Virus record (IMG/VR): IMGVR_UViG_2778261499_000007
DNA: 14,225 nt
Direction: 5' to 3' (one strand)
Source: a virus
Lineage: Duplodnaviria; Heunggongvirae; Uroviricota; Caudoviricetes
Positions 1 through 14,225 of the stretch are shown piece after piece; within the stretch, counting starts at the first letter, position 1; each line of letters starts with the position of its first letter. The notes beneath the pieces are model-generated. The model worked only from the letters and a program-made list of their open reading frames with translations, ran no database searches and was not told where the DNA came from. The position numbers were made by a program, and so were the translations under genes.

Positions 1-77
1 CCCCTCAGAGTGGATAGCTGCCAGTGTGGCGTAATTCAGGCCGCTATAGTGCTTTCCGTCATCCCAGCCAACCGCTA
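1..77. repeat. Terminal direct repeat, left copy (identical to 14149-14225)
   Basis: Base-by-base comparison: position 1 aligns with 14149 and position 77 with 14225; position 78 onward is unique. Confidence 0.9.
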
Positions 78-156
78 CACCTTCCATCTGTGAGAGCTCT
101 TTGTGCAGCTTATCCATCATGCGCTTGTCTATGGTGCAATGGACTTTCGGACTCAT
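1..156 (-). CDS. Hypothetical protein, N-terminal part (MSPKVHCTIDKRMMDKLHKELSQMEGVAVGWDDGKHYSGLNYATLAAIHSEG...); continues at 14148->13846 if the unit is circular
   Basis: ATG at 156-154 overlaps the TGA stop of the upstream gene (ATGA, 153-156), suggesting translational coupling. The frame stays open to position 1, and the residues encoded by 1-77 are the same as those encoded by 14149-14225. Confidence 0.5.
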   Translation of the reverse strand, partial: MSPKVHCTIDKRMMDKLHKELSQMEGVAVGWDDGKHYSGLNYATLAAIHSEG

Positions 157-956
157 TTGTTGATCTCCGTGATGTCATCGAGCAACATGTTGGCCTTATC
201 GATCATCGTTTCGTGGAACTCATTCGACACAACAGACTTATCACCTGCGGCAATCTTTCCAGCAGCCTCTCCCTGTGCATATTCCCCGCGATGCTTAGCC
301 CTGGTGGATTTCGTAGCAGCGTTGCCAGCGTTGCTACCCTCTTTAGCACTGTTAACAGCACCCTTTTGCTGTGTTTTGTTCACCTTCTTACTGTTAGTGA
401 AAACTCCGGCATTTTCGACCATCTTCACCTTGAAGGTGCGGAATTCTTCAAAAGTGCAATCAATAGTGATGCAGTCGCCAGAGGAAGAGCTACGCTTAAC
501 TTCACATTTCGTCATGATGAAGTTCTCAAGAAGTCCGGCATCTTCACTAACCAGGCTAACCAGCTGGCGCTTGTCTCTCATTTCCATAAGTGCCTGAACA
601 GCGGCAGCAGGGCGCATAGATTCACGGGGATTATCTGGATCAGTGTTCCGGTCGATGTAGTTCTCTTTCCGGATGATATGAGGGGAAGAGGTGATAATAC
701 CCGTAAAGCTGACAGATTTATCTTTAATGACGGCATGGTCTGACATGGTGGTGCCATCCTCGACCGCATAGCTCGATTTCTCGACAGGGAACGAATAGCT
801 GACATCAGAGATTGAGTCAAAGAAGATAGCCACGTTATCGGTATAGTTGAAGCCATCCATTATATTTTTGTTTTGTGAATATCCCCCACACATAACAGTG
901 AATGCAGGAGATCTCGACTCAGCTTGTTTTGCAGCTGTCAGAGCATCACTAGCCAT
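153..956 (-). CDS. Hypothetical protein, about 267 aa, Lys/Ala/Gly/Ser/Asn-rich C-terminal half; possibly virion-associated (function unknown)
   Basis: ORF-track ORF 153..1010 begins at a TTG; an internal ATG at 956-954 is preceded by GGAGG with about 10-nt spacing, so 956 is the likelier start. Protein-like composition; same strand as the capsid genes. Confidence 0.5.
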   Translation of the reverse strand: MASDALTAAKQAESRSPAFTVMCGGYSQNKNIMDGFNYTDNVAIFFDSISDVSYSFPVEKSSYAVEDGTTMSDHAVIKDKSVSFTGIITSSPHIIRKENYIDRNTDPDNPRESMRPAAAVQALMEMRDKRQLVSLVSEDAGLLENFIMTKCEVKRSSSSGDCITIDCTFEEFRTFKVKMVENAGVFTNSKKVNKTQQKGAVNSAKEGSNAGNAATKSTRAKHRGEYAQGEAAGKIAAGDKSVVSNEFHETMIDKANMLLDDITEINK

Positions 957-1150
957 ATTAAACATGCCTCCAAATTGGTCCACTTCATGGATTTGGCTAA
1001 ACTCGTGCAAGTAGCACTCATCCCGAGGGTGTTAAAGCCAAACCTGCAAAAGATGCAGGCAAAATAGAACTTATCGTTGCCCTGCTTAAAATCTGCAGAA
1101 AATACAGGGCAGTTATTCGTTAGAATCGCTTATAGCTCTTCCCGAGAGCG

Positions 1151-1402
1151 TTATTTTGCAAAACGATTATGGGCATTCAGGGCTTTTTTGCGGTCCTGGG
1201 CTTGTTTGCGTGCAATAAAATGTTCGAAAGTCTCGGCCCAGGTGCATTTATTATATTCACGGTATTTATGCATAGCCTGGCGGCTAACGTCATAGCAGGC
1301 GGCAAATGTGGAGATACGCAGGAATTCCGGCAGATCCTCGTCATCGATATGGATAATATCAAAAGGCACGTCATCACGGTCGCCGTATAAAACAATTTTC
1401 AT
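1151..1402 (-). CDS. Small DNA-binding protein (helix-turn-helix-like segment ISTFAACYDVSRQAMHKY), about 83 aa
   Basis: ORF-track ORF 1151..1411 begins at GTG; the ATG at 1402-1400 is preceded by GAGGTG with 6-nt spacing. The overlapping plus-strand ORFs look like shadows. Confidence 0.4.
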   Translation of the reverse strand: MKIVLYGDRDDVPFDIIHIDDEDLPEFLRISTFAACYDVSRQAMHKYREYNKCTWAETFEHFIARKQAQDRKKALNAHNRFAK

Positions 1403-1436
1403 AAAAGACACCTCAAAAACTTAAGACGGGGATTAT

Positions 1437-1478: not shown

Positions 1479-1487
1479 TGTGGATAA
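1479..1487. promoter_or_regulatory. Perfect DnaA-box 9-mer (TGTGGATAA, reverse complement TTATCCACA)
   Basis: Exact match to the TTATCCACA consensus; a second perfect copy lies at 3256-3264. Significance uncertain for an isolated 9-mer. Confidence 0.25.
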
Positions 1488-1537
1488 TAAAAAAGGGAAG
1501 AGGGAAAGACCTATCCCCGATCTCTCACCTCTTCCCT
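1487..1537 (-). terminator. Putative intrinsic terminator downstream of the major capsid gene
   Basis: On the minus strand, GGGAAGAGG/CCTCTTCCC stem halves (1495-1503 and 1528-1536) are followed by a T-run (complement of the A-run at 1488-1494), directly after the capsid stop at 1544-1546. Confidence 0.45.
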
Positions 1538-1543
1538 TTGCTT

Positions 1544-2578
1544 TTATTTAGCCTTGGCAGCGGCGGCGGTGTTTTTAACACTCACTTTAACCACAACTTC
1601 AGGCATCATGTTCATGAAAGCATAAGAGGATTCAACGAAGATTTCGCGTTTGCCTCTGGACTCTTCCATATACATGAAAGCTTCACGTGCAGCGCCGTTT
1701 GCCAGCTTCAGGTTGCGAGCGCAAGGGCCGAAAAATTGAGTATAAACGCCCACCATATCGCCTAACGCATGCGGCTGGAACTGTGGGACTAGATAAGCAG
1801 TATTCTCTGGCAGACTATCCATTTGCACCACACGCAGGGCTAAGCCCGGAATGCGGAAGGTCGGGAAGCCCGGCAGAATATCCTCAGGGAACATCAGACC
1901 TTTATCGGTAATATTCTGATTGCCGAACAACAGCACTTTACGGAGCAGTTCATCAGTCTGAATTGCAGCAAAGAGCTCAGCACGGCAGAACAGGGTGAAA
2001 CCACGCAGAGCGCGAACGACACCACGCTGTTTAACCTTGCTCAGTGCAACCAGGTCCTGCAGCTGTTTAAGGATATCTTGAGCTAGATCCACTTCTGAAG
2101 TGGTTTGCTGTGCGCCCAGCAGTTCGCACACATTCAGTTCTTTACCCTTGGTGAGGATAATTTTGTTCTCAAAGAGAGCAAGCTGGCGTGCTTCTTCATG
2201 GGTCTGGCGTAAGCCTTCGCCCAGTTGAATAACACGACGAGCGGTTACAGACTCTAAATTCTCTTCGGAATCTTTGCCAGGAACGCGGATACCCTGCCAG
2301 TCAGAAGGATAAATAGCACTTGATGCGGCAGTGAACGCCATATCACCCGTGCCCGTTTCACGCTCATCTGCGGTAATGGTCGCCATCTGTTCACCGTAGC
2401 GCGGATACTGACCGAAAGCGGTTTGTTTCACCTGCCGAACTTTGTCATATTCAAATTTGAAGGTATTGCACAGAGCAGTAGTGTTGAAGATATCCATTGC
2501 TGAAATAATCTGATTATCCAGCGGGATGTCTTTAATCAGACCACACAGATCGCGAACTTCGAATTCTTTCTTAGCCAT
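1544..2578 (-). CDS. Major capsid protein, lambda gpE-like family (HK97-fold), about 344 aa
   Basis: Size and position match lambda E (341 aa), immediately downstream of a 111-aa D-like gene. C-terminal segment KREIFVESSYAFMNMMPEVVVKVSV resembles the lambda gpE C-terminus as recalled. ATG at 2578 is preceded by AGGAGG with 6-nt spacing; the track start at 2584 is a TTG. Confidence 0.65.
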   Translation of the reverse strand: MAKKEFEVRDLCGLIKDIPLDNQIISAMDIFNTTALCNTFKFEYDKVRQVKQTAFGQYPRYGEQMATITADERETGTGDMAFTAASSAIYPSDWQGIRVPGKDSEENLESVTARRVIQLGEGLRQTHEEARQLALFENKIILTKGKELNVCELLGAQQTTSEVDLAQDILKQLQDLVALSKVKQRGVVRALRGFTLFCRAELFAAIQTDELLRKVLLFGNQNITDKGLMFPEDILPGFPTFRIPGLALRVVQMDSLPENTAYLVPQFQPHALGDMVGVYTQFFGPCARNLKLANGAAREAFMYMEESRGKREIFVESSYAFMNMMPEVVVKVSVKNTAAAAKAK

Positions 2579-2589
2579 TTCCAACCTCC

Positions 2590-2925
2590 TTATTGTGCAA
2601 CACGCAAATCGCCATTGCTGGCAGCAATAACAGCGGCTAAGCCGTCTTTATCCACGTAGGCCGGATTGATATAACAGCCTTTGTTGGCAACAACGATAAA
2701 AGCATCACCAACCTCAGCACGTTCTACAACCAGCAGCGGAGTTTTATCGGTGTGCGTTTCTTTAACGAAGGTCTCAACCTCGCCAGCCTCAGTCACCACA
2801 ACAACAGTGCCAGCCGGAATCTCAGCTTTAACTTTGTTTTTAATTTCAACGTCGCGAATACTAAATTGCTCATCTGCGGCGTATGAAATGATGTGTCCGC
2901 GTGTGCGGATAGTCATATCTCTCAT
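2590..2925 (-). CDS. Head decoration protein (lambda gpD-like / DUF2190-like), 111 aa
   Basis: 111 aa, beta-rich with Val/Ala/Gly runs, directly upstream of the E-like capsid gene (stop at 2590-2592, capsid RBS 6 nt later). AGGTGA RBS before the ATG at 2925. Confidence 0.55.
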   Translation of the reverse strand: MRDMTIRTRGHIISYAADEQFSIRDVEIKNKVKAEIPAGTVVVVTEAGEVETFVKETHTDKTPLLVVERAEVGDAFIVVANKGCYINPAYVDKDGLAAVIAASNGDLRVAQ

Positions 2926-3255
2926 TTGATCACCTGCGATTTAAATTAACTCCCCTCAAAGAGTTCCGGTATAACCTCTCAAACCGCGACAGGCTCGGGC
3001 CGAAAAGTTATGCCGGAAATCTAAAGGGGGATTGATATAAGGAGAGGGAGATAGCCCCGCACCGTAGCCAAGCGGGGGCTATTCCACATGGGGAAACCGA
3101 CAACAGTCGGATGATAGTTCACAGTATGGGTTACGGTTACTAGAGAGCACTATCACGAAAGGCACTCCCCCGAATCAGTTCAGGCTGCGGTCACATCAGC
3201 GGGGAAATACCTTTCGGGATAGCTACCCACACAGAAAACCCGCAAAAGAAAACTG

Positions 3256-3264
3256 TGTGGATAA
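3256..3264. promoter_or_regulatory. Perfect DnaA-box 9-mer (TGTGGATAA)
   Basis: Exact consensus match within the 870-bp ORF-free leader upstream of the capsid operon. Confidence 0.25.
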
Positions 3265-3408
3265 CTAGCCCAATAGGAGAATTAATCGACCACTCAACGA
3301 TGATCAGGGTAGTGTTATTTATAGGGCGGCACCGCTACCTGGTCGCCTTTACTTTGGAGGAAAATATGGCAAATCAAGATCTTCTCAAATGATATTGATT
3401 CCATACTA

Positions 3409-3428
3409 TACTGTATATTATATCAGTA
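3409..3428. promoter_or_regulatory. LexA/SOS-box-like site (taCTGTatattataTCAGta)
   Basis: CTGT-N8-TCAG with an AT-only spacer; matches the E. coli SOS-box consensus CTGT-(AT)4-ACAG except the first base of the right half-site. Confidence 0.35.
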
Positions 3429-3775
3429 TTTACTCACATTGTCAACACCTTGATTATATAAATTCTAATAATTAGCGTAGTAACGGTATTTTCAGACCTC
3501 TATCAATCCCATCAATACGTCACCCCCACCCTTTAGATGCATACATCCGACCTACTTTGTAGGCTTGGCGTACTGCCAAGGTCGCAGCTATGCGACTCCT
3601 ATCTATCACCACTTTATAAAGCTTGATAGATATCTTTTGATCAATATCAATGTTTTCCGGGTATTTACCCGGCTATAGTTCGAATCAAGGAAGGGGAGCA
3701 TTGATAGAGACACCCAAAGGGGTGACTGAAAGTCACCTGGCATAGCCAGTGAAAGCACCCAACCGAACAAACAAA

Positions 3776-3790
3776 TCAACTTCTCGCAAA
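3776..3790 (+). promoter_or_regulatory. Conserved 15-nt motif TCAACTTCTCGCAAA, copy 1, immediately upstream of the RBS of the 3802 peptide
   Basis: Identical 15-mer at 4367-4381 and a near-identical copy (TCAACCTCTCGCGAG) at 13473-13487. Copies 1 and 2 sit at the same distance from an SD and ATG. Confidence 0.5.
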
Positions 3791-3801
3791 AGGTGATAGT
3801 T

Positions 3802-3924
3802 ATGGGTATCAAGAACAGTGCCAGCGCATGGCAAAAGGCCAGGTTTCATCACCCACACATTGTTAAGGCAATTGAGGTGGTTGGAGTTTTAGCCCTGATG
3901 TTAGCTCTGTGTGTGGAGGTGTGA
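3802..3924 (+). CDS. Small peptide, 40 aa, with hydrophobic C-terminal segment (MGIKNSASAWQKARFHHPHIVKAIEVVGVLALMLALCVEV)
   Basis: Below the ORF-track size cutoff; translated by hand. AGGTGA RBS with 5-nt spacing; predicted C-terminal transmembrane segment. Confidence 0.3.
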   Translation: MGIKNSASAWQKARFHHPHIVKAIEVVGVLALMLALCVEV

Positions 3925-4025: not shown

Positions 4026-4286
4026 ATGACGGGGGCTAAAGATATCAGGAGACTGAGGGAAGAGCTGATAGCTGAAATTAAAGCTAAGGCAAAGCAAATG
4101 GAGATAGCCGCACAAATGGATGTAGCGGAACAGATGTACAAGATGGTTGAGGAGGGAACGCCACGACAGGTTATCGCTAAAACCTTCGGTGTGGGGATCG
4201 CCACCGTGCACAGAAGGCTGAAAGCCTATGCCGACTACCACAATATCGAGAGAAAGGAGGATGGGAGATTTAAGAAGAATAAATAG
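4026..4286 (+). CDS. Small HTH DNA-binding protein (coiled-coil N-terminus, C-terminal HTH GTPRQVIAKTFGVGIATVHRRLK), 86 aa
   Basis: ORF track; GAGGAG RBS; clear helix-turn-helix pattern; the overlapping minus-strand ORFs are low-complexity shadows. Confidence 0.55.
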   Translation: MTGAKDIRRLREELIAEIKAKAKQMEIAAQMDVAEQMYKMVEEGTPRQVIAKTFGVGIATVHRRLKAYADYHNIERKEDGRFKKNK

Positions 4287-4296
4287 TAGGAACAGG

Positions 4297-4336
4297 CCCG
4301 AAGGGCTTAGCTTTAGCTAAGGTCCTATCAGGACTC
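4297..4336. repeat. Right arm of the 40-bp inverted repeat (partner 1437-1476); hairpin-forming
   Basis: CCCGAAGGGCTTAGCTTTAGCTAAGGTCCT... is the reverse complement of 1437-1476 with about 4 mismatches; lies between the HTH gene stop and the next gene. Confidence 0.7.
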
Positions 4337-4366: not shown

Positions 4367-4381
4367 TCAACTTCTCGCAAA
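4367..4381 (+). promoter_or_regulatory. Conserved 15-nt motif TCAACTTCTCGCAAA, copy 2, immediately upstream of the RBS of the 4393 gene
   Basis: Exact repeat of 3776-3790, at the same spacing to SD and ATG. Confidence 0.5.
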
Positions 4382-4392
4382 GGGGTACCACT

Positions 4393-5103
4393 ATGTTTAA
4401 AGGTCTTGTTGTTACGCTATTGGCTTGCATTGTATTTGGTCCATGGGTGTTAGTAATTGCTTTACCTATATTGCTGATCATGAGCTTAGGGAATGATATT
4501 AAAAAGCTGCATGCACAATATAAGGAGCATCCTGGAGCAGTCATAACAAGTCTGGTTATAGTCGCGGGGCTTATTGGCTGGGTCTACTTCTCTCTTCCCA
4601 CAGGAAATACAACTGCAAATGTAGAAGAGGCGAACGCACAGCATGAAGAAGTGGTTAACGTCGCCGACCTTACATGGGAGGACAGGGTAAAAGCATATAA
4701 ATATATTTATGGTGTGCTAGATTGCGATCTCTCTAAAGATATAGGATGCACAGATAAATACCAGATTCACGCCTGGCTGTGGAATCATGCAGAAAAAGGT
4801 GCTTGCAACCAGATTAAAGTGGCGGTTAACAGTGGGGCACCTACTGGGAAAAATAAAGATGTTCTGACGGTATGGTGCAAGGATGTAAAAGGCAATGATC
4901 GTTGGCTACAGATGCGCCACATGGACGGTGTAAGCATAGAAACTACACGAACGGCTCGATGGTATAACGGTGAACTCGTTCACGAAGCATGGCAGAATAA
5001 CGCCTGGATCACTGAGGGAACACTCCTGAATGTTGATATGGAAGCATTGAAGATGCTTAATGAGATGTACGGTGAAGCCGTAGAAACCTCTCCGATGAAA
5101 TAA
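4393..5103 (+). CDS. Membrane protein, 236 aa: N-terminal transmembrane helices and a Cys-containing C-terminal domain; function unknown
   Basis: ORF track; two long hydrophobic segments in the first 70 aa; several Cys in the C-terminal domain; followed by a strong terminator. Confidence 0.55.
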   Translation: MFKGLVVTLLACIVFGPWVLVIALPILLIMSLGNDIKKLHAQYKEHPGAVITSLVIVAGLIGWVYFSLPTGNTTANVEEANAQHEEVVNVADLTWEDRVKAYKYIYGVLDCDLSKDIGCTDKYQIHAWLWNHAEKGACNQIKVAVNSGAPTGKNKDVLTVWCKDVKGNDRWLQMRHMDGVSIETTRTARWYNGELVHEAWQNNAWITEGTLLNVDMEALKMLNEMYGEAVETSPMK

Positions 5104-5113
5104 CCACACCTAC

Positions 5114-5143
5114 CAGGGGCCATCACGGCCCCTTTTTATTTAT
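5114..5143 (+). terminator. Rho-independent terminator (AGGGGCC-atcac-GGCCCCT followed by TTTTATTTAT)
   Basis: Perfect 7-bp GC-rich stem, 5-nt loop and T-rich tail starting 11 nt after the stop of the 4393..5103 gene. Confidence 0.7.
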
Positions 5144-5200
5144 CCCCTATTTACACTCCTTTCAGTCCTGATCATCACTCCCTACCCCCTGATCAATTAA

Positions 5201-5250
5201 CCCCTATTTAAGGGGTATTTAATGGGTATTTAATGCCTATTTATTGATTT
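5201..5250. repeat. Phased tandem repeats of TATTTAA at about 11-bp period (4 to 5 copies), plus a second CCCCTATTTA copy at 5144-5153
   Basis: cccctatttaa / ggggtatttaat / gggtatttaat / gcctatttatt / gatttaat; periodicity of about one helical turn. Confidence 0.6.
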
Positions 5251-6486
5251 AATCCGTTTTATGCCACAACCGCCCGGTTGACAGAGTAAGAGAGAGGGTG
5301 TAACCCTTTTTCGTAATACTAATAAAATCAATAGCTTAGCTCAATTGGCCTTTTCTCTGTTTTTGTCAAATTTAACATACCCTAAAAAACTGCAAAATCT
5401 GGCTGCAAGATTATCTGCAGCTGGATTTCTTACACCTCAATTTGTGGTATCACCCTGACTAGTTTGTGCATAAAATGAACAGTTTTTAACATTTCCTCTT
5501 CACCTGGTAACCACACAAAAAGCTAAAAACGAGGCACAGATAATCTTAGAGGCCTGTTTTCTTGTTATCACTCTGGAAACGTCGTAGAAGTGATTTTGAT
5601 GAAAGATGACCTACCCTATTACACCCCCATTTTTTGTTATCACAATTGCATCCTGTGCGGTGTATGGCTGTGTGCTGAAAGCGGTCTTGGGTGTGGGTGT
5701 CAGAAATATCCATTAGCGGTATTAATACCCGTCAGATGTTCGTCTGAGGTGCCAGGCAGGCGCTCCCCCACCTCCCTTTTTTCTTCTAACAATTCTCAAA
5801 TATCACACCACTGCCGACCACGTTACTACTCTGTTAATTCTTAAGCTTTGCTGTATGTTGTGCACATTATTTATTCAGGTGCGTGTACGTAAATTCTGGG
5901 CCTCCTTATCATGATTTTTAAATCAGATTTTGTAGTTCGGTTTCTTAGTGTAGATAAGATCTATTATGTTAAATGCAATTTTCCCAACCCTTCAAATCAA
6001 TGACTTACATGTAAGCATGCACTAACACCCCACACAGCACATTAGACGTATAGATGGCTATATCCCACATTTTTGATTGTTTTGTAGTCATTCCCCTGAT
6101 CATTTAACCAGTATAGTTTGTTCTTTGCAGACCACAAAATCGGAATTTACATCTGATTAACATAATCTGTTAGCATGATCACTATTACCCACACAACAAT
6201 AACCCCATGCAAGACTCTTCAGGCAATTTATCGGCGTGTTGGTGTGAACAGTCTTTCATGTTCTTTATGTTTTCATTGTCCTGTGTGAGGGAAGGATGGA
6301 CTGCCCCAGGGGCCACACTTATGATGCCCGGTCAACATAGCTATTGATAAAATCAACGGGTGTTGATCTGCATATTTCCCACACATGAGAGGAAATCAGA
6401 GCAAAGAGAGAGGAGAGAGGTTTGCTAGTCAAAATAGGTCAATTGACGGCTAATACAGAGTAAAAAATCAGATGCAATCACTCCCC

Positions 6487-6669
6487 ACCTGTTGGGATTT
6501 CCCGCACCTGTATAAGAATACAGTCATACTTTCCCGTTATACGGTCATACACATGATGGAATAACCTGTTGGAATTTCCTACAGGTTTAACCATACACAG
6601 GAGCTAACCTGTTGGAATTTCCTACTACTACCTGTCGGTATTTCCCACAGGTACCTGTTGGAATTTCCC
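6487..6669. repeat. Iteron array (5 copies of ACCTGTTGGAATTTCCY at 6487, 6564, 6607, 6630, 6653), candidate replication origin
   Basis: Near-identical 17-mers; the last three are spaced 23 bp apart; ACCTGT/ACAGGT inverted half-sites; followed by an AT-rich tract (6670-6710) and, 1.3 kb downstream, Rep-like genes. Confidence 0.7.
6508..6523. promoter_or_regulatory. Canonical SOS-box pattern CTGT-N8-ACAG (CTGTATAAGAATACAG) inside the iteron region
   Basis: Exact CTGT and ACAG half-sites with an 8-nt A/T-rich spacer. May partly reflect the iteron ACCTGT/ACAGGT half-sites. Confidence 0.35.
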
Positions 6670-6797
6670 ACACTAATAGATAAAGAGAATAGATCAATAA
6701 AAAGAACTCCCCCTATAATCCCCCAACAAGGGGGGATGGGGAGGGATCAGAGAGTGGGGAAGGTTTTCTAAGGGAAAAGCTTAACCCACAAATGAAA

Positions 6798-6826
6798 GCC
6801 TAAAGAGCATTAGCGACTCTTTAGGC
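6798..6826. other. Perfect 10-bp stem hairpin (GCCTAAAGAG-N9-CTCTTTAGGC), part of a highly structured ORF-free stretch (about 6790-7100)
   Basis: Exact inverted repeat. Nearby are GGTGAC-N21-GTCACC (6840-6872), TTAAGCC-tct-GGCTTAA, GTCCGGA-N20-TCCGGAC and tandem 17-mers at 6826-6843 and 6873-6889. Confidence 0.5.
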
Positions 6827-7231
6827 AATCTGTGTGTGGGGTGACAATGTATTCCATACATGACACGTCACCCAATTGTGTGTGGGGTGCTTACAGCACT
6901 TAAGCCTCTGGCTTAACCCTTCGGGCCTCTGTGTGGGAAGCGTAGTGCGATAGCACGTAGCTTTATAATGTGGAGTCCGGATAAGAGACTTCTGTTTCCA
7001 ATCCGGACCGTTTAAGCGAGGGATTCCGCTCGCCCGTGTATGCACACACGTAATAGGACGCTCAGAAATCGATTTTAAGGCCCAAAACGGGGCCTACAGC
7101 AACCTAAACCATACTCCATAGTGCAATTGCATTGCCTGATGCTTAAATCGCGTTGTAGGGCATCTCATGAGGTTTGAGTTTAACACCCTCCAAAGTTTTA
7201 ACAAAAAGTGCTCTCCCTCCATTGTGGGCCA

Positions 7232-7261
7232 TTGACAATCTTATTGCATAAATGCTATAAG
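7232..7261 (+). promoter_or_regulatory. Sigma70-like promoter (TTGACA-N18-TATAAG)
   Basis: Consensus -35 hexamer with a 5-of-6 match -10 at 18-nt spacing. One of five (A/T)TTGACAAT-type repeats in 7230-7560. Confidence 0.4.
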
Positions 7262-7551
7262 TGATTCTGGTTTTGACACGGTAGGGGCCATTAATAATGT
7301 TTACCCCTTTGCTGTGGACTTGCTTGCACCTATAGCACACCTAAATGATAATAATTCTCATTGACAATTGGTTGACAATATGATAAGATTATAAATAGGG
7401 GGAGAAACAGATCCGGAGGTCAATGTGGAAATTACTGATGCAATAGCGATCATCAACCTGGCTGTACTGTGGTGCGGTGTTGCCTACATAGCCGGAGTAA
7501 CTGCAATCGACAATCTCGAAGAAAAAATGATAGATAAATACAAAAAGATTG

Positions 7552-7580
7552 TTGACAATTTGACGAATGTCTGATAAAAT
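7552..7580 (+). promoter_or_regulatory. Sigma70-like promoter (TTGACA-N17-TAAAAT) about 125 nt upstream of the 7706 gene
   Basis: Consensus -35 and near-consensus -10 at optimal spacing, oriented toward the replication gene block. Confidence 0.45.
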
Positions 7581-7705
7581 ATAAAGCATAGGGTAATTCT
7601 CATCATAGTGAATTTCCTTAAACAAAAATGCGGGGGCTTGTCTTAAGTTCCCGTTTCTTTTTAACCGTATATCGCACAGGCGGTGAGCTGACAGGAGATT
7701 GAATC

Positions 7706-7915: not shown

Positions 7916-7939
7916 TAAATAATCTTGGAGGATCATATT

Positions 7940-8326
7940 ATGGCAAATAACGATGAAAATTTTACTCCCTTTTTTAAACGTTTCATCAAATACACTTTTA
8001 AAAATCCGATTGCAAAAACTGCAACCAATAAAGAAAGATTTCACTTAAATGTGTTGGAGGTAACAATTTATGGTGAAATGGTAAGTTATTCTTTTAAGGA
8101 GGGTGAAGAAATAATTATCTCAGAGCTCTCGACGCAGACATTAGCAGACGATTATGATGTTACAGAGAAAACAGTAAGGTCGGCTATCAAAACATTAGAG
8201 GCTGCAGGTCTGATAAACGTTAAACGAGAACAGGGCAAATCGAATATCTACGAATTGCTAATTACCCCTGATCAGCTTGGCAAGATGTGCGATGAGCAGG
8301 GTATTAGAGAATATTTTATATATTAA
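7940..8326 (+). CDS. Rep-like winged-helix protein, short paralog (about 128 aa); replication-initiator-type HTH
   Basis: Segment ISELSTQTLADDYDVTEKTVRSAIKTLEAAGLINVKREQGKSNIYELL fits the winged-helix pattern of phage/plasmid replication initiators. GGAGG RBS before the ATG at 7940 (track start 7925 is a TTG). Paralogous to the next gene. Confidence 0.5.
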   Translation: MANNDENFTPFFKRFIKYTFKNPIAKTATNKERFHLNVLEVTIYGEMVSYSFKEGEEIIISELSTQTLADDYDVTEKTVRSAIKTLEAAGLINVKREQGKSNIYELLITPDQLGKMCDEQGIREYFIY

Positions 8327-8337
8327 TGGGGGGAACT

Positions 8338-9258
8338 ATGGCAGGAAATAAACTGGGGGCACCTTTTACCCCCTCTTTCGATTTCTTTATTCAGTATGAT
8401 TTTGATAAACCAGTAGCAACAACAATTTCTAATAAAAAGACTGGAACAGTTAAAGAGCGCTTCTATTTAACAGACTTTGAAATGTTGATTTATGGAAAAA
8501 TGGTGGGATTTCATTTTAACGGTGAGGGAATTTATATTTCAGAGCAAAAACTGGCAACTCAACTCAGAAAGGATCGCGGGAAAATAGTAAGCGCTATTAA
8601 ATCTCTGGAAAATGCCGGGCTTATTTCTAAAGATAGCCGGAAAGGCATGTCTAATAATTACAAATTGCTGAAAACCCCTGATCAATTGTTGGATATGTGC
8701 ATTGAGAAGGGCGTAAATATTCCAGAAGGCATCTTAGAGACTTTCGGAAAGACTGCCGCTAAAGTAGAACAGCCTCAGGAAGCCCCAAAACAAGCCACAC
8801 AGCAAGCTAAAAAGGCTAAAGTAGTGCAATTGCCTACCCAAGACACTAAAGCGCCTCAAATTAACGCTGTTAGTGACAAGCCACGCCGGGGCCGTCCTGT
8901 GAAAGATGTCACCGATGGAGGCTGGATCGTCCTGGGTGAGAGTGAGGCTAAAGGCATAATGCGATCACTGTGGGAAAGCAAATACAAAGATTTAAACAAA
9001 CGTCGCCCGATCCTTTTGTCAAAGATTCAGGAGGATTTTTACACCGCAGAAGAGGTAAGCCAACATAAAGGGAAAAGAGAGGGTGAAATCTGGAAACCGG
9101 AAGAATACTGGCATTTAACCAGACCTGTGTTTATTTTTGCAAATAAGCTTATTGGGATGGGATTTGAAATATTGTTGGATAAAACCTGCGGAGATTATCC
9201 CGAAATATTGTGGAGAAATGTTAGAAAAAATAAAAAAGGCATTTTAGAGTTTAAATAA
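8338..9258 (+). CDS. Rep-like replication initiator, long paralog (about 306 aa) with a C-terminal extension
   Basis: N-terminal 120 aa parallels the preceding gene (MA.N...FTP.F...; ...SAIKSLENAGLISKDSRKGMSNNYKLL). The previous stop overlaps an upstream ATG at 8326 (TAATG); 8338 is preceded by a G-rich SD. Iterons lie upstream. Confidence 0.5.
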   Translation: MAGNKLGAPFTPSFDFFIQYDFDKPVATTISNKKTGTVKERFYLTDFEMLIYGKMVGFHFNGEGIYISEQKLATQLRKDRGKIVSAIKSLENAGLISKDSRKGMSNNYKLLKTPDQLLDMCIEKGVNIPEGILETFGKTAAKVEQPQEAPKQATQQAKKAKVVQLPTQDTKAPQINAVSDKPRRGRPVKDVTDGGWIVLGESEAKGIMRSLWESKYKDLNKRRPILLSKIQEDFYTAEEVSQHKGKREGEIWKPEEYWHLTRPVFIFANKLIGMGFEILLDKTCGDYPEILWRNVRKNKKGILEFK

Positions 9259-9551: not shown

Positions 9552-10040
9552 ATGTTCAAATCTGATCTTTCTGATTCCCAATTTGAAAAACTGGTAGCAC
9601 TGCAGAAATATCTCCCCAGTGATGATCAACCAACACGACAGGCTAAACACTTATTAGTCGAGGGCTTTACCCCTGAATTCGTGGCGGAATATACAGGCGT
9701 TAAACTTGAGAAAGTCCAAAAACTATATAATGAGTCCTGGAATCCACGGTGTCGAGTTCCCCTCAGTGTCTACAACGAAATAGATAGAGATAGAAATGTC
9801 TTCGAAGATCGCCGCCGCAAATCTCTTTTAATGTGGAATTGTGGGATGAATATTGAAGAGATAGCAAAAGAATTAAAAGTAACCTGCTTTCATATCTGGG
9901 GCTTGTTGAGTGAAATCCTACCACGTAAGGAGCTTAATCAACGTTTGCCTAAGCCCGGTAGTCGTGCTTATCGCGAATTTATATTCATCTACCGCCGCCA
10001 TAGCAATAAAGTCCGGAAAGCAATGGCCCAGAAAGCCTAA
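9552..10040 (+). CDS. Hypothetical protein, 162 aa, with two HTH-like segments (possible DNA-binding or regulatory protein)
   Basis: ORF track; GGAGA RBS; basic C-terminus; HTH-like stretches FTPEFVAEYTGVKLEKVQKLY and MNIEEIAKELKVTCFHIWGLL. Confidence 0.45.
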   Translation: MFKSDLSDSQFEKLVALQKYLPSDDQPTRQAKHLLVEGFTPEFVAEYTGVKLEKVQKLYNESWNPRCRVPLSVYNEIDRDRNVFEDRRRKSLLMWNCGMNIEEIAKELKVTCFHIWGLLSEILPRKELNQRLPKPGSRAYREFIFIYRRHSNKVRKAMAQKA

Positions 10041-11190: not shown

Positions 11191-13293
11191 ATGGCAATGA
11201 AGGAAGTAGCCAAGCTAACAAACGTTATTTACTGGGATTCTGATAAATCCAGCTGGCGAAAAGAAGTTAAACGGCTTGAGGATTATAAAAAATCCTGGAA
11301 GAAAGCTACCGACGATATAGCTAAAGCGGATTTTAAATCTAATCAGGCTGTGCTCAGAACACAAAGAACACGCGCTAAGGTGGAAGAGCAGATCGCCAGA
11401 GCACAGAAGAAACAACGTGCTCAGGCTGTCAGCCGTCTGACCGGGGGCAATAATCCGGAGCTCTCCTCTATGCGCAAGTTCTATCAGCAGCAAGCCAGAG
11501 AGGCCGCCAGACAACAAAAACTGTTAGATCGTAGTGTTGGAGATGTTCAGCACAGAAAAGCACGTGTAGGGGCCAACAGTGCACGAATCAGCAGCATGTT
11601 TGATGGCTCCCTGGTTGCTCAGTTCCAATCCAGAATTCAGAGAGTTAATGCTGATTATGCTAAAGGGGCTATTAACCTGCAGACCTATAATCAGAAAATG
11701 GCCCGACTCAGATCTGAAATGAAGATGGCAACAGCAGAGGCCGGAAAATTTCAGAGCAGACTAGACAAAGCTGCGGTAGCAGGATCAAAGCTGCATGACA
11801 ACCTGGGCAAACTCAACTCCACACTAGGCAAGATAGCTATTGGCCTTACTGCCGCTGGCTGGGGTGTTCAGCGTGCTGTTAGTGGTGCTATGGGTAGCCT
11901 TGCAGATCGCAACAGTGCGTATTTCAGCTTAATGGCCCAGAACAAGGATGATAAAGAAAAAACTGATCAGCAGATGGCCTACGTCAAAAGAATCTCTTAT
12001 GACTACGGGATGGATCAGCGTGAGACTGAAGGCGGCTTTATGCGCTTTGCTGCAGCCACACCAAGCATAAAAGAGAAAGATAAGCAGGATCTCTTTGAGG
12101 CTATGGCGATTAAAGGCCGATCAGTGGGTGCTACCGCAGACCAACAGAACAGGGCTATCGTTGCACTAGGACAAATATATAGCAAGGGCGGTCGAGTGTA
12201 TGCGGAAGAGCTTAAGGGCCAACTTTCTGAAGCCCTGGCAGGTTCTCAGGTAGATTTCACTAAGGCCGCTATCGATGCCGGAGTCATCAAGAAAGAGGAA
12301 GAATTTAATAAAGCCCTTGAAGATGGCAAGATCACCATGGACAAGCTTCTTCCTTCTCTGGTGAAAATCTGGGGTGCTGCAAAAGAAACTAAAGCTTTTG
12401 CTGAATCCATGAAACAGCCAGAAGTAGCAATGCAGCGCATGAAAAACAGCTTTAACGAGCTGGCGATTCAGTTTATGGGTGTTGTGGATCCTGCAGATGG
12501 CGTTATTAGCTTATCTGAATCTCTAATCTCCATCTTCGAAGACCTCACCACTGATATGGACGGCAGCGGGAGCGCGGCAAAACAGTTCGGTGAGGCAGTC
12601 GGGGCTGCCATGCGGGAGATCATGTATTGGGTAGGCTTCGCTAAGGGATATATCGAGATTAAGGCTAAAGAGTTCGGCATGACCAGTGAGGAAGTCGGAG
12701 GATGGATCGGCAAGCTGGTTGTTGCAATCGCAGGTCTGAAGATCATCGGCACACTTCTTTCTCCGTTTACCGGACTGATTTCACTTGTCACACAGCTGAT
12801 AGCCTTGTTAGGTAAAATCCCTGGTATGAGCAAGCTTCTGGCTTCTGCCTCAGGTGGAACGGCAACAGGAGCAGCGGTCATCAGTGCAGGATCTAACGCT
12901 GAAAGAAGTTTCATTGATGGCAAGACGCAGGAAATGAGTAAGGAGAACTCAAAACAGGGTGCTTTGTTTGAGCTGGGAAGATTTGTTAGCAATGCTGGCG
13001 CACTATTCACACCTGGCGGTGATACTGGTCCTTTGTTCGATCAGGTCAGAGGCTGGTTTAATAAAGGGCCAACATTGACAGTAGACACTGGCATCAGACC
13101 AACACCAACGGGTGGCATAGCTATCCAGAATGGTGGATATCAACCAGTCCAAGTAAATGTAGCCCCACAAGGTGAGATTTCCGGCAAATGGGAGATAACC
13201 ATCGATGAGGGGGGAATTGCCAGGGTAATTCAGAAGGAAGTCAGCGATCAGTTGGATTGGAAAGCCACGCAGGAATCTAACCAGCTTTTCTAA
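11191..13293 (+). CDS. Tail tape measure protein-like, 700 aa
   Basis: Long coiled-coil N-terminal region; segment ADQQNRAIVALGQIYSKGGRVYAEELKGQLSEALAGSQVDF matches the conserved tape-measure domain pattern (SKG...EEL..QL.E.L.G); long hydrophobic helices at about residues 505-560; Gly-rich C-terminus. Confidence 0.7.
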   Translation: MAMKEVAKLTNVIYWDSDKSSWRKEVKRLEDYKKSWKKATDDIAKADFKSNQAVLRTQRTRAKVEEQIARAQKKQRAQAVSRLTGGNNPELSSMRKFYQQQAREAARQQKLLDRSVGDVQHRKARVGANSARISSMFDGSLVAQFQSRIQRVNADYAKGAINLQTYNQKMARLRSEMKMATAEAGKFQSRLDKAAVAGSKLHDNLGKLNSTLGKIAIGLTAAGWGVQRAVSGAMGSLADRNSAYFSLMAQNKDDKEKTDQQMAYVKRISYDYGMDQRETEGGFMRFAAATPSIKEKDKQDLFEAMAIKGRSVGATADQQNRAIVALGQIYSKGGRVYAEELKGQLSEALAGSQVDFTKAAIDAGVIKKEEEFNKALEDGKITMDKLLPSLVKIWGAAKETKAFAESMKQPEVAMQRMKNSFNELAIQFMGVVDPADGVISLSESLISIFEDLTTDMDGSGSAAKQFGEAVGAAMREIMYWVGFAKGYIEIKAKEFGMTSEEVGGWIGKLVVAIAGLKIIGTLLSPFTGLISLVTQLIALLGKIPGMSKLLASASGGTATGAAVISAGSNAERSFIDGKTQEMSKENSKQGALFELGRFVSNAGALFTPGGDTGPLFDQVRGWFNKGPTLTVDTGIRPTPTGGIAIQNGGYQPVQVNVAPQGEISGKWEITIDEGGIARVIQKEVSDQLDWKATQESNQLF

Positions 13294-13395
13294 TGTCCAC
13301 TCTGTGGATTTGAGTTCTACTCAAACCTGCATAGCAGGCACTGATATTGTGATCAAAATCAATAAGTTAGCCTGACCGGACAAACTCCAGGCAAG

Positions 13396-13426
13396 AAAAA
13401 AGCCCCTAAGTGTTAACAAAGGGGCT
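13396..13426 (-). terminator. Rho-independent terminator for minus-strand transcription (AGCCCCT-N12-AGGGGCT followed by six T on the minus strand)
   Basis: Perfect 7-bp stem at 13401-13407 and 13420-13426; the A-run at 13396-13401 on the plus strand gives the U-tail on the minus strand. Confidence 0.55.
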
Positions 13427-13472
13427 CTTCTCCGGTATCCTTTTGATGCGGGGCAAAACCTGCTAACAAAAA

Positions 13473-13487
13473 TCAACCTCTCGCGAG
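13473..13487 (+). promoter_or_regulatory. Conserved motif copy 3 (TCAACCTCTCGCGAG), in the loop of an 11-bp inverted repeat (13458-13468 and 13493-13503)
   Basis: 13 of 15 identical to the motif at 3776 and 4367; not followed by a credible ORF, which argues for function at the DNA or RNA level. Confidence 0.4.
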
Positions 13488-13845
13488 ACTAATGTTAGCA
13501 GGTTGCCGGAAGGTAAGTCAACTCCGGTCTATAAACCTTAAAGCGACTATAAAATCGCCCCGCCAATTGTGATGATCCGACCTTTGAGGCGGGTCCGGTG
13601 CCCAGGGGGTGCAGTGATGCACAAACCAGGCAACGATAAACAGGCTAACAGTGATAGCGGCGCTCAATCAGCGCACTAAATCCTAACCAGTCCGGGAAAG
13701 AGGCTGGCTCTATCGACCGCTCATGCACGGGACAATGCATACCTGATAAAGGATTCTCACAAGGGACCAATCGCGAGAAAGAAGTGGAAAGGGGCTGATT
13801 TGTGGTGTATCACTACGGCCTCAAAAGACATCCTATTGTCTTTTT

Positions 13846-14225
13846 TCAGCCTCTACCTACATTTGACCAATACTTGATTGCACCGATCAAATCATCATAG
13901 TGGCGCATTGCATCATTGAAGCCTTTATAGCTTGCCCATTGTGGTGAAACCTTGTTATTGCTGAATTGCCCACTAATCAGGATAGTCTCCAAAATGTCGG
14001 CATATCGCTTACCAATACGCTTTCTGACGGCCTCAGAGCTCCCACCCTTTACGATTGCATTAATCAGGGCTTTTGTGTGTCTCAGGCTCTCATAGAGCAT
14101 TGCAGCGTGGGCAGATTCCATAAAGGAGCGCTTAGGCAGATCACCCCACCCCTCAGAGTGGATAGCTGCCAGTGTGGCGTAATTCAGGCCGCTATAGTGC
14201 TTTCCGTCATCCCAGCCAACCGCTA
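13846..14225 (-). CDS. Hypothetical protein, C-terminal part (...MESAHAAMLYESLRHTKALINAIVKGGSSEAVRKRIGKRYADILETILISGQFSNNKVSPQWASYKGFNDAMRHYDDLIGAIKYWSNVGRG); same gene as 1-156 if circular (about 152 aa total)
   Basis: The frame is open from the window end down to the TGA at 13846-13848; the upstream portion is supplied in frame by 156->1 through the 77-bp junction. Confidence 0.5.
   Translation of the reverse strand, partial: AVGWDDGKHYSGLNYATLAAIHSEGWGDLPKRSFMESAHAAMLYESLRHTKALINAIVKGGSSEAVRKRIGKRYADILETILISGQFSNNKVSPQWASYKGFNDAMRHYDDLIGAIKYWSNVGRG
14149..14225. repeat. Terminal direct repeat, right copy (identical to 1-77)
   Basis: Same 77-mer as the window start; consistent with a circular contig written with overlap, or a direct terminal repeat. 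Confidence 0.9.

Follow-up and report, generated by a model that had tools for sequence, protein, structure and literature searches.

A capsid gene pair heads a block of rV5-type virion genes on a 14-kb Escherichia coli plasmid that may be a phage satellite

The T=4 heads of the phage satellites P4, SaPI1 and PLE hold 11-18 kb, and satellites that depend on strictly virulent phages include PLE in Vibrio cholerae and the marine PICMIs. SaPIbov5 reportedly encodes Ccm, an HK97-fold homolog of its helper's capsid protein that is thought to change capsid size, and we know of no tape measure or tail tube initiator encoded by SaPIbov5 with its Ccm, by P4, by PLE or by the capsid-forming phage-inducible chromosomal islands (cf-PICIs). 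A 2025 review names one plasmid alone, an inovirus satellite, as a proven phage satellite, and our literature search found no description of rV5/Vequintavirus satellites or of plasmid satellites with capsid genes. Here we describe a 14,225-nucleotide (nt) stretch of DNA, IMG/VR virus record IMGVR_UViG_2778261499_000007 (hereafter the window, at its full length), in which a gene for a 111-amino-acid (aa) protein is followed by one for a 344-aa major capsid protein. We consider it reasonably probable that this pair is the head module of a 14.1-kb autonomous, plasmid-type phage satellite of Escherichia coli, with a virulent rV5-like (Vequintavirinae) myophage as the probable helper. The satellite lifestyle is read from sequence, and the reading is drawn from the narrow size of the replicon, the purifying selection on its structural genes and the packaging genes that it lacks.

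Both genes lie on the minus strand. The open reading frame (ORF) of the 111-aa gene (2925..2590) was confirmed and is the first of a conserved block, in which the 344-aa gene (2578..1544) comes second; the mechanical ORF list places the start of the latter at TTG 2584, and the ATG at 2578 is used here. The genes are separated by 11 nt, and the Shine-Dalgarno sequence ahead of the capsid gene (TAAGGAGG, 2592..2585) overlaps the stop codon of the 111-aa gene. The initial annotation had given these ORF sizes, their spacing and their order correctly, and 111 and 344 aa do fit lambda D and E numerically (110 and 341 aa). The terminator that it placed after the pair was also borne out: an intrinsic terminator on the minus strand (1548..1486) consists of a -33.9 kcal/mol hairpin followed by UUUUUUAUUAU, which contains a U6 run, and the hairpin is more stable than 200/200 shuffles (z = -3.76). 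Strong purifying selection acts on both genes, with dN/dS values of 0.075 (111-aa gene) and 0.072 (capsid gene) in comparison with a 90%-identical relative (L006). The order of the pair is kept in four lineages, at a protein identity of 41-65% for the small protein and 40-81% for the capsid protein, and the conserved block as a whole comprises, in order, the 111-aa gene, the capsid gene, a gene of about 80 aa, a tube initiator gene and a neck protein gene. The pair had been described as an isolated head module, and this description does not hold, because the pair heads a conserved block, and the plasmid bears a selection of rV5-type virion genes that includes a tape measure gene on the same 14-kb circle.

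The identity of the 344-aa protein is supported by family, sequence and structure comparisons. It matches PHROG 29 ('major head protein') at 1.7e-20 and aligns over 97% of its length with the capsid proteins of rV5-like myophages at 24-25% identity; among 50,697 phage records, no capsid match came from any phage group beyond these. A phmmer search matched it to the phiTE capsid protein 9cul_G at 2e-4. The Pfam model PF03864 (Phage_cap_E), whose founding member is lambda gpE, gave no match to the window protein itself at E<=0.1. Its three orthologs did match the same model (lineages B, C and D; 81%, 51% and 40% identical; best 1.7e-14), as did the rV5-like capsid protein at 2e-39, and the model is carried by all of the distant capsid homologs found by profile (41/41). 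An AlphaFold2 (AF2) model built from 46 sequences is of low confidence (pLDDT 55) and contains a long spine helix and an E-loop-like hairpin. When this model was compared with the PDB using Foldseek, all matches at E<=1e-3 (11/11) were phage capsid entries with HK97 major capsid proteins at the top, led by the phiTE capsid (3e-13, TM-score 0.43-0.45) and followed by ICP1, Bas63 and Sf14, while the lambda capsid appeared as a weak match (E=5e-3). Two checks that the initial annotation had proposed, a profile search for a capsid family and a structural test for an HK97 fold, both favored a capsid protein, the latter through a low-confidence model. Its "lambda-style" label is misleading: the protein falls in the Pfam family of lambda E, but the closest phages are rV5-like myophages, and a direct hhalign comparison with a gpE sequence entered by hand was not significant (P=0.22). 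Overall, the 344-aa protein belongs to the E family of HK97-fold major capsid proteins and is much closer to those of rV5-type phages than to that of lambda and, by sequence comparison, distant from all known phages. Five of the distant E-family homologs (P0047, P0051, P0054, P0062 and P0064) are located on 15-17-kb contigs, which could be fragments of large phages or more small elements of this kind.

The 111-aa protein is probably a very divergent decoration or cementing protein, an assignment drawn from the position of its gene together with a single weak profile match. The gene of every homolog immediately precedes an E-family capsid gene and belongs to the same five-gene block. rV5-like phages have, at this position before the capsid gene, a gene for a beta-tulip head decoration protein (DEC), and the DEC of phiTE is a beta-tulip trimer seated on an HK97 shell with T=13 geometry (PMC11972413). 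Alignment of the 111-aa family with a 10-member Vequintavirinae DEC alignment by hhalign gave a colinear, weak local alignment (P=0.013), the score of which was reached by 2/300 column-shuffled controls; BLAST of the protein against the rV5-like decoration protein was not significant. Searches of Pfam, PHROG and the PDB with the protein, and of Pfam and PHROG also with its family, returned no usable relative. An exhaustive HMMER search of 1.8 billion representatives recovered as relatives only family proteins of the same size, at 43-49% identity, and an extra match to an NHL-type repeat protein was judged spurious. For the decoration protein proposed in the initial annotation, the evidence is a gene position shared with rV5-like DEC and the weak P=0.013 alignment; similarity to lambda gpD (hhalign P=0.65, with a gpD sequence entered by hand) and any other decoration-family match were not found.

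It is conceivable, though on the whole unlikely, that the 111-aa protein serves another purpose, such as setting capsid size or acting as an external scaffold, in the manner of Sid or TcaP, or binding nucleic acid. The lack of a matching decoration family in Pfam or PHROG and of similarity to gpD is in keeping with such a role, as is a marginal Alba-like match of its profile against the PDB (E=0.015) that spans residues 3-49, or half an Alba fold; the AF2 model of the protein, built with 6 close homologs, is unusable (pLDDT 41). However, the gene occupies the exact position of the decoration gene in the proposed helper family, the profile match to that family's protein is colinear, and the protein is predicted, at low confidence, to be rich in beta-strands, unlike helical internal scaffolds.

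The DNA that carries the pair is a plasmid. Because the first and last 77 bases of the window are identical, it represents a closed circle, of 14,148 bp. Near-identical DNA was found in one trimer record and otherwise exclusively in E. coli plasmids that are circular, non-mobilizable and 13.2-13.7 kb long; the E. coli that bear these plasmids came from humans, cattle, pigs and chickens. All of the matching places in 7 complete E. coli genomes were plasmid (11/11), and none was chromosomal. The trimer record (L007, NZ_CP043822.1, 39,610 bp) is a head-to-tail array of the ~13.2-kb element with several broken genes, and may be either a genuine multimer or an artefact of long-read assembly. Two genes for winged-helix replication initiators (Rep) of 133 and 310 aa on the plus strand (7925..9258) match PHROG replication initiation/O-like families and Pfam HTH_36, and five 21-nt iterons of repeat family D2 (6485..6671) mark the presumed plasmid origin. 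With its closed circle, Rep genes, iterons and status as a separate replicon in complete genomes, the window is an iteron-type plasmid. Its proteins recur, on intact elements, in 13.3-14.3-kb contigs from hundreds of sequencing runs. Megablast of the window against the phage records gave no match, and profile scans of the GTDB representative genomes with the 111-aa and capsid families found no family member. The membrane-protein slot (4393-5103) and the Rep genes (7925-9258) have been swapped among otherwise near-identical elements (in comparison with L001, L006 and L012-L015): Rep identity between elements is 41-98%, and some elements have no membrane gene. Despite this exchange of Rep and cargo modules, replicon size remains in the range 13.2-14.3 kb.

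Beyond the capsid protein, three further virion proteins of the circle have relatives in rV5-like phages. The tail tube initiator gene (Dit-like, rV5 type; 1010..153, minus strand) matches Pfam Dit_like at 2.5e-25, and its product is 50-52% identical to the 'tail tube initiator' of rV5-like phages and matches phiTE 9cuy_K at 1.4e-34. The gene that follows it spans the circle junction (156..1 and 14225..13846, minus strand) and was reconstructed as a circular ORF, bases 14149-14225 being a repeat of bases 1-77; it encodes a 152-aa neck/tail completion-like protein that matches PHROG 222 at 2.3e-28 and is 44% identical to rV5-like bas49_0011. On the plus strand, a gene for a 700-aa tape measure protein of rV5 type (11191..13293) matches PHROG 5255 at 2.3e-153, with 25-26% identity to the rV5-like counterparts and a match to the phiTE tape measure protein 9cuy_W at 2.7e-21. 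All four virion homologs point to rV5-like phages, with no higher-scoring group among the 50,697 phage records, and dN/dS ranges from 0.07 to 0.25 across all structural genes tested. The remaining member of the block, a conserved small gene of 83-86 aa (1411..1151, minus strand), lies third, between the capsid and tube initiator genes, in all lineages, and a family search with its ~83-aa product gave no match.

The genes that are missing are equally informative. The initial annotation had observed that no portal, protease or scaffold genes stand beside the pair, and our scan extends that observation, together with terminase, to the whole replicon. No family match to a portal, terminase, protease, scaffold, sheath, tube, baseplate, fibre or lysis protein was found on the 14,148-bp circle, and no ORF has the size of a portal or large terminase gene, as all ORFs other than those for the capsid (344 aa) and tape measure (700 aa) proteins are of at most 310 aa. 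Two features by which a satellite would be recognized are present: genes essential for virion formation and packaging are missing from the entire circle, and functions that could interface with a helper are encoded, namely the rV5-type tube initiator, neck, tape measure and capsid homologs. The earlier suggestion that the element exploits a helper fits this genomic context, with rV5-type virion genes and without packaging genes, well.

Upstream of the pair, the initial annotation had described an 870-bp leader free of ORFs. The figure is correct, and from 2926 to ~3792 there are only short ORFs (<=68 aa, none shown to be conserved), but the stretch is not empty, as it holds a promoter and a structured RNA. 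The promoter is a consensus sigma-70 promoter with an extended -10 element (TTGACA-17-TGnTATAAT; 3445..3417, minus strand) that agrees with the consensus at 12/12 positions, the best in the window; in all four lineages the capsid-operon promoter scores 11-12/12 and lies 478-740 nt upstream of the 111-aa gene. From it, a 485-nt untranslated structured leader RNA is predicted (3410..2926, minus strand), with a minimum free energy of -172.6 kcal/mol compared to -137.4 +/- 6.0 kcal/mol for shuffles (z = -5.85). A 29-aa leader peptide directly after the predicted start (3404..3315) was considered and rejected, as it is lost in a close relative and not conserved.

About 60 nt past the predicted transcription start, the leader contains an H-type pseudoknot (3347..3308, minus strand), with helix H1 formed by 3347-3342/3330-3325 and helix H2 by 3339-3335/3312-3308. 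The helix sequences differ between lineages while the pairing is kept: 95.5% of cells are paired, 8/11 pairs show compensatory changes, 0/500 shuffles reach the observed values, and slid registers collapse. Rfam contains no family that matches the leader or the pseudoknot. A T4-like late promoter was considered for TATAAATA in the leader and rejected, since the rV5-like phage has no such motif before its structural genes; TATAAATA corresponds to loop 3 of the pseudoknot. A search pattern was derived from the conserved single-stranded bases (CCAG-N5-GGTG-N5-10-AAYAACA). This pattern is absent from the rV5-like genome. It has ~110 matches in IMG/VR, 14 of which pair at 9/11 or more positions, against an estimated ~0.4 matches by chance, and six at 11/11. 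These copies lie on unrelated contigs, and their helix sequences are unrelated to those of the window yet complementary. The recurrent pseudoknot (copies in L037, L045, L057, L074, L104, L134, L114, L111, L029, L043, L130 and L144) has conserved CAG, (C/A)GGU and AAYAACA segments and resides mostly in 5' leaders, one copy having a promoter on one side and a terminator on the other. We regard it as a possible novel regulatory RNA motif of phages.

Further downstream, a GC-rich terminator-like hairpin (3083..3051, minus strand; -18 to -21 kcal/mol) lies ~326 nt past the start and 109 nt before the 111-aa gene. An equivalent hairpin is found 280-330 nt past the start in 4/4 lineages and is followed by a T6-T7 run in 3/4. 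The arrangement of promoter, structured RNA and terminator ahead of the structural genes suggests, by analogy, control through transcriptional read-through. The logic is comparable to that of lambda PR'-tR' and of the leader RNA of P4, in which a constitutive promoter is coupled to premature termination within the leader. A candidate regulator, judged from its domain match, is an 86-aa HTH_7 protein (4026..4286, plus strand; Pfam HTH_7 3.4e-6) whose gene is divergent from the capsid operon and conserved in lineages A, B and C.

In the satellite scheme that we favor, the element would replicate as an iteron plasmid, and in an uninfected cell the consensus promoter would fire, with most transcripts stopping in the leader at the hairpin ~330 nt downstream. 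Upon helper infection, read-through would allow expression of the capsid protein and its 111-aa partner; the trigger might be the pseudoknot, an element-encoded helix-turn-helix (HTH) or Mor/sigma-r4-like protein, or a helper factor. Passage through the post-capsid terminator would then bring about expression of the tube initiator and the neck protein. On the helper portal, and with scaffold and protease also supplied by the helper, the satellite capsid protein would form a small shell, of about T=4 and matched in size to ~14 kb of DNA, which the 111-aa protein would cement or shape. The shell of the helper family is T=13 (PMC11972413), and the genome of the proposed helper is ~137 kb. Helper terminase would package the plasmid DNA, and the tape measure, tube initiator and neck proteins of the satellite would adapt tails that are otherwise made by the helper.

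Several observations weigh against this account. The capsid protein is just 24% identical to that of the proposed helper, and because of this low identity its cooperation with the helper portal, scaffold and protease is an assumption. Encapsidation of the plasmid is proposed from its genes. Profile scans of IMG/VR with the 111-aa and capsid families found no family member, and a search for co-occurrence with the helper found no rV5-like DNA in RefSeq complete E. coli genomes. A pac or cos site was not identified, nor was a small terminase or an Rpp-like redirector, the sole hint being a weak HTH match. The structure model of the capsid protein is of low confidence, and the case for the 111-aa protein as a decoration protein is weak, its profile also giving the marginal Alba-like match. 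Finally, in the lineage of the window the leader hairpin has a pyrimidine tract in place of a U-run, and termination in the leader is therefore less certain there.

The lack of any packaging signal or terminase partner also bears on the main competing explanation, which we regard as unlikely, that the element is a defence plasmid whose divergent virion proteins act as decoys, poisoning rV5-like assembly, and which is not itself packaged. All four virion proteins are homologous to proteins that fit into helper assemblies, and interference with tail assembly by proteins of mobile elements has been documented (PMC11364771). A decoy would, however, have no need for a complete, strongly conserved capsid gene with a partner gene and a very strong ribosome-binding site, and it leaves the narrow 13.2-14.3-kb size, maintained through module exchange, unexplained; PADLOC matched no defence family on the window. 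Because known satellites both interfere and transfer, assembly interference is a partial rather than an exclusive alternative to a satellite.

An incomplete virion gene set and two large ORF-poor regions (2926-3792 and 5104-7705) could also be taken as signs of a decaying remnant of a small phage-plasmid or prophage, with the capsid pair as a leftover without present function. This we consider very improbable, given dN/dS values of 0.07-0.25 on all structural genes tested, a gene order that is constant in four lineages down to 40% protein identity, intact elements in hundreds of runs, and a leader structure that is conserved and covarying. A different question is whether a satellite of this type would have a helper outside the Vequintavirinae, such as an unsampled phage, possibly temperate or a phage-plasmid, with a distant relationship to rV5. 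The best identity to any sequenced phage is just 24-52%, and reviews hold that satellites of phage-plasmids may exist (PMC12282955). We nevertheless find such a helper quite improbable, as the four structural homologs converge on one phage group with none higher among the 50,697 records, and low identity to the helper is usual for satellites with structural genes of their own, as is the case for the genes of cf-PICIs. A satellite that exploits rV5-like phages remains the reading that we prefer.

The remainder of the circle encodes small HTH proteins and a variable membrane protein, and no tRNA genes were found in the window. The iterons are located in a 2.6-kb ORF-poor region (5104-7705) that is partly conserved between lineages. 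A conserved protein of 153-162 aa (window 9552-10040; ortholog L015:3561-4022) has weak matches to Sigma70_r4, Mor, KorA and small-terminase HTH domains, and may serve to activate transcription or to redirect packaging. A candidate packaging site is the ~550-nt non-coding stretch (13294-13845) that separates the tape measure gene from the neck gene, with which it is convergent; the stretch falls inside the block 13120-14148, which is 84% identical between lineages A and B, above most coding DNA. A 45-nt element with three mini-hairpins and a perfect palindrome (CTTAGCT-NN-AGCTAAG) occurs twice (1437-1481 and 4292-4336), each copy just upstream of a gene start, that of the ~83-aa gene on the minus strand and that of the 236-aa membrane gene on the plus strand. 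A role of these inverted repeats, which flank the module, as invertase sites was rejected, as their orientation relative to the downstream gene is constant and the module orientation is the same in all relatives; the element may be an operator or an RNA element. In addition, the 16-nt sequence AACTTCTCGCAAARGG is found at 3778-3793 and 4369-4384, directly upstream of two plus-strand gene starts, those of a small hydrophobic ORF (3793-3924) and of the 236-aa gene (from 4393), which suggests a common 5' untranslated region or translation signal.

If the satellite reading is true, it would add an E. coli example to the satellites of virulent phages. It would also have satellite and helper divide their tasks in a new way, with shell and tail-axis proteins made by the satellite, which has neither portal nor terminase. 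It would further provide a test case for the use of a foreign portal, scaffold and protease by a capsid protein that is 24% identical to that of the helper. With slightly less than even confidence, we propose more broadly that the 13-14-kb iteron plasmids constitute an unrecognised class of satellites of ~137-kb rV5-like phages, with a shell and inner tail axis of their own, a borrowed portal, terminase, sheath, tube and baseplate, and gating by a pseudoknot leader. rV5-like phages have been used against E. coli O157:H7, and a resident plasmid that diverts their assembly could lower phage efficacy and move DNA between strains. The record CP057073.1, entered as a plasmid from an E. coli culture obtained from cattle faeces, is a 137.5-kb rV5-like genome, which suggests that virulent rV5-like phages can persist in isolates as carried replicons.

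Among satellites of virulent phages, PLE has been described as a parasite of a virulent phage (PMC10945586). Like PLE with TcaP and P4 with Sid and Psu, the element is small (11-18 kb for those two), would exploit a larger myophage and would form T=4 heads, and P4 can likewise be maintained as a plasmid. No sequence similarity of the element to P4 or PLE was found, and both of these reshape the helper capsid protein with external scaffolds, having no capsid, tape measure or tube initiator protein of their own. SaPIbov5 Ccm resembles the present case as a satellite-borne homolog of a capsid protein that is not accompanied by a satellite portal. Ccm, however, works with the helper capsid protein of a temperate siphovirus, whereas the element has a full-length E-family capsid protein, 24% identical to that of its putative helper, and a partner gene to go with it.

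With respect to phage head modules, that of the Vequintavirinae (rV5, phiTE) shares with the element an arrangement in which a small gene immediately precedes an E-family capsid gene (~335-345 aa). Upstream of the pair, those phages have genes for terminase, portal, protease and scaffold, in contrast to the promoter and RNA leader found here; the capsid proteins are 24% identical, and the small proteins show no identity detectable by BLAST. Lambda gpD and gpE are alike in protein size and gene order, and gpD is a beta-tulip decoration protein like that of phiTE, but neither shows significant direct similarity to the proteins of the window (hhalign P=0.65 and P=0.22, with the lambda sequences entered by hand).

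Functionally, the element would be most like the cf-PICIs, although it lacks their defining features. An integrase, portal, protease and terminase were not found on the circle, and the replicon is extrachromosomal: cf-PICIs are integrated in the chromosome and undergo induction by temperate helpers, whereas the element is a plasmid with Rep genes and iterons. By gene content, cf-PICIs bring a complete head-and-packaging set (portal, protease, adaptors and small terminase) and lack tail genes, while the element has the tail-axis genes for tape measure, tube initiator and neck proteins, and its relatives are virulent myophages. What the element and the cf-PICIs of Enterobacteria would have in common is a genome of ~12-15 kb, an HK97 capsid protein of their own, small capsids, and the supply of the remaining virion parts by a helper, as we propose for this element.

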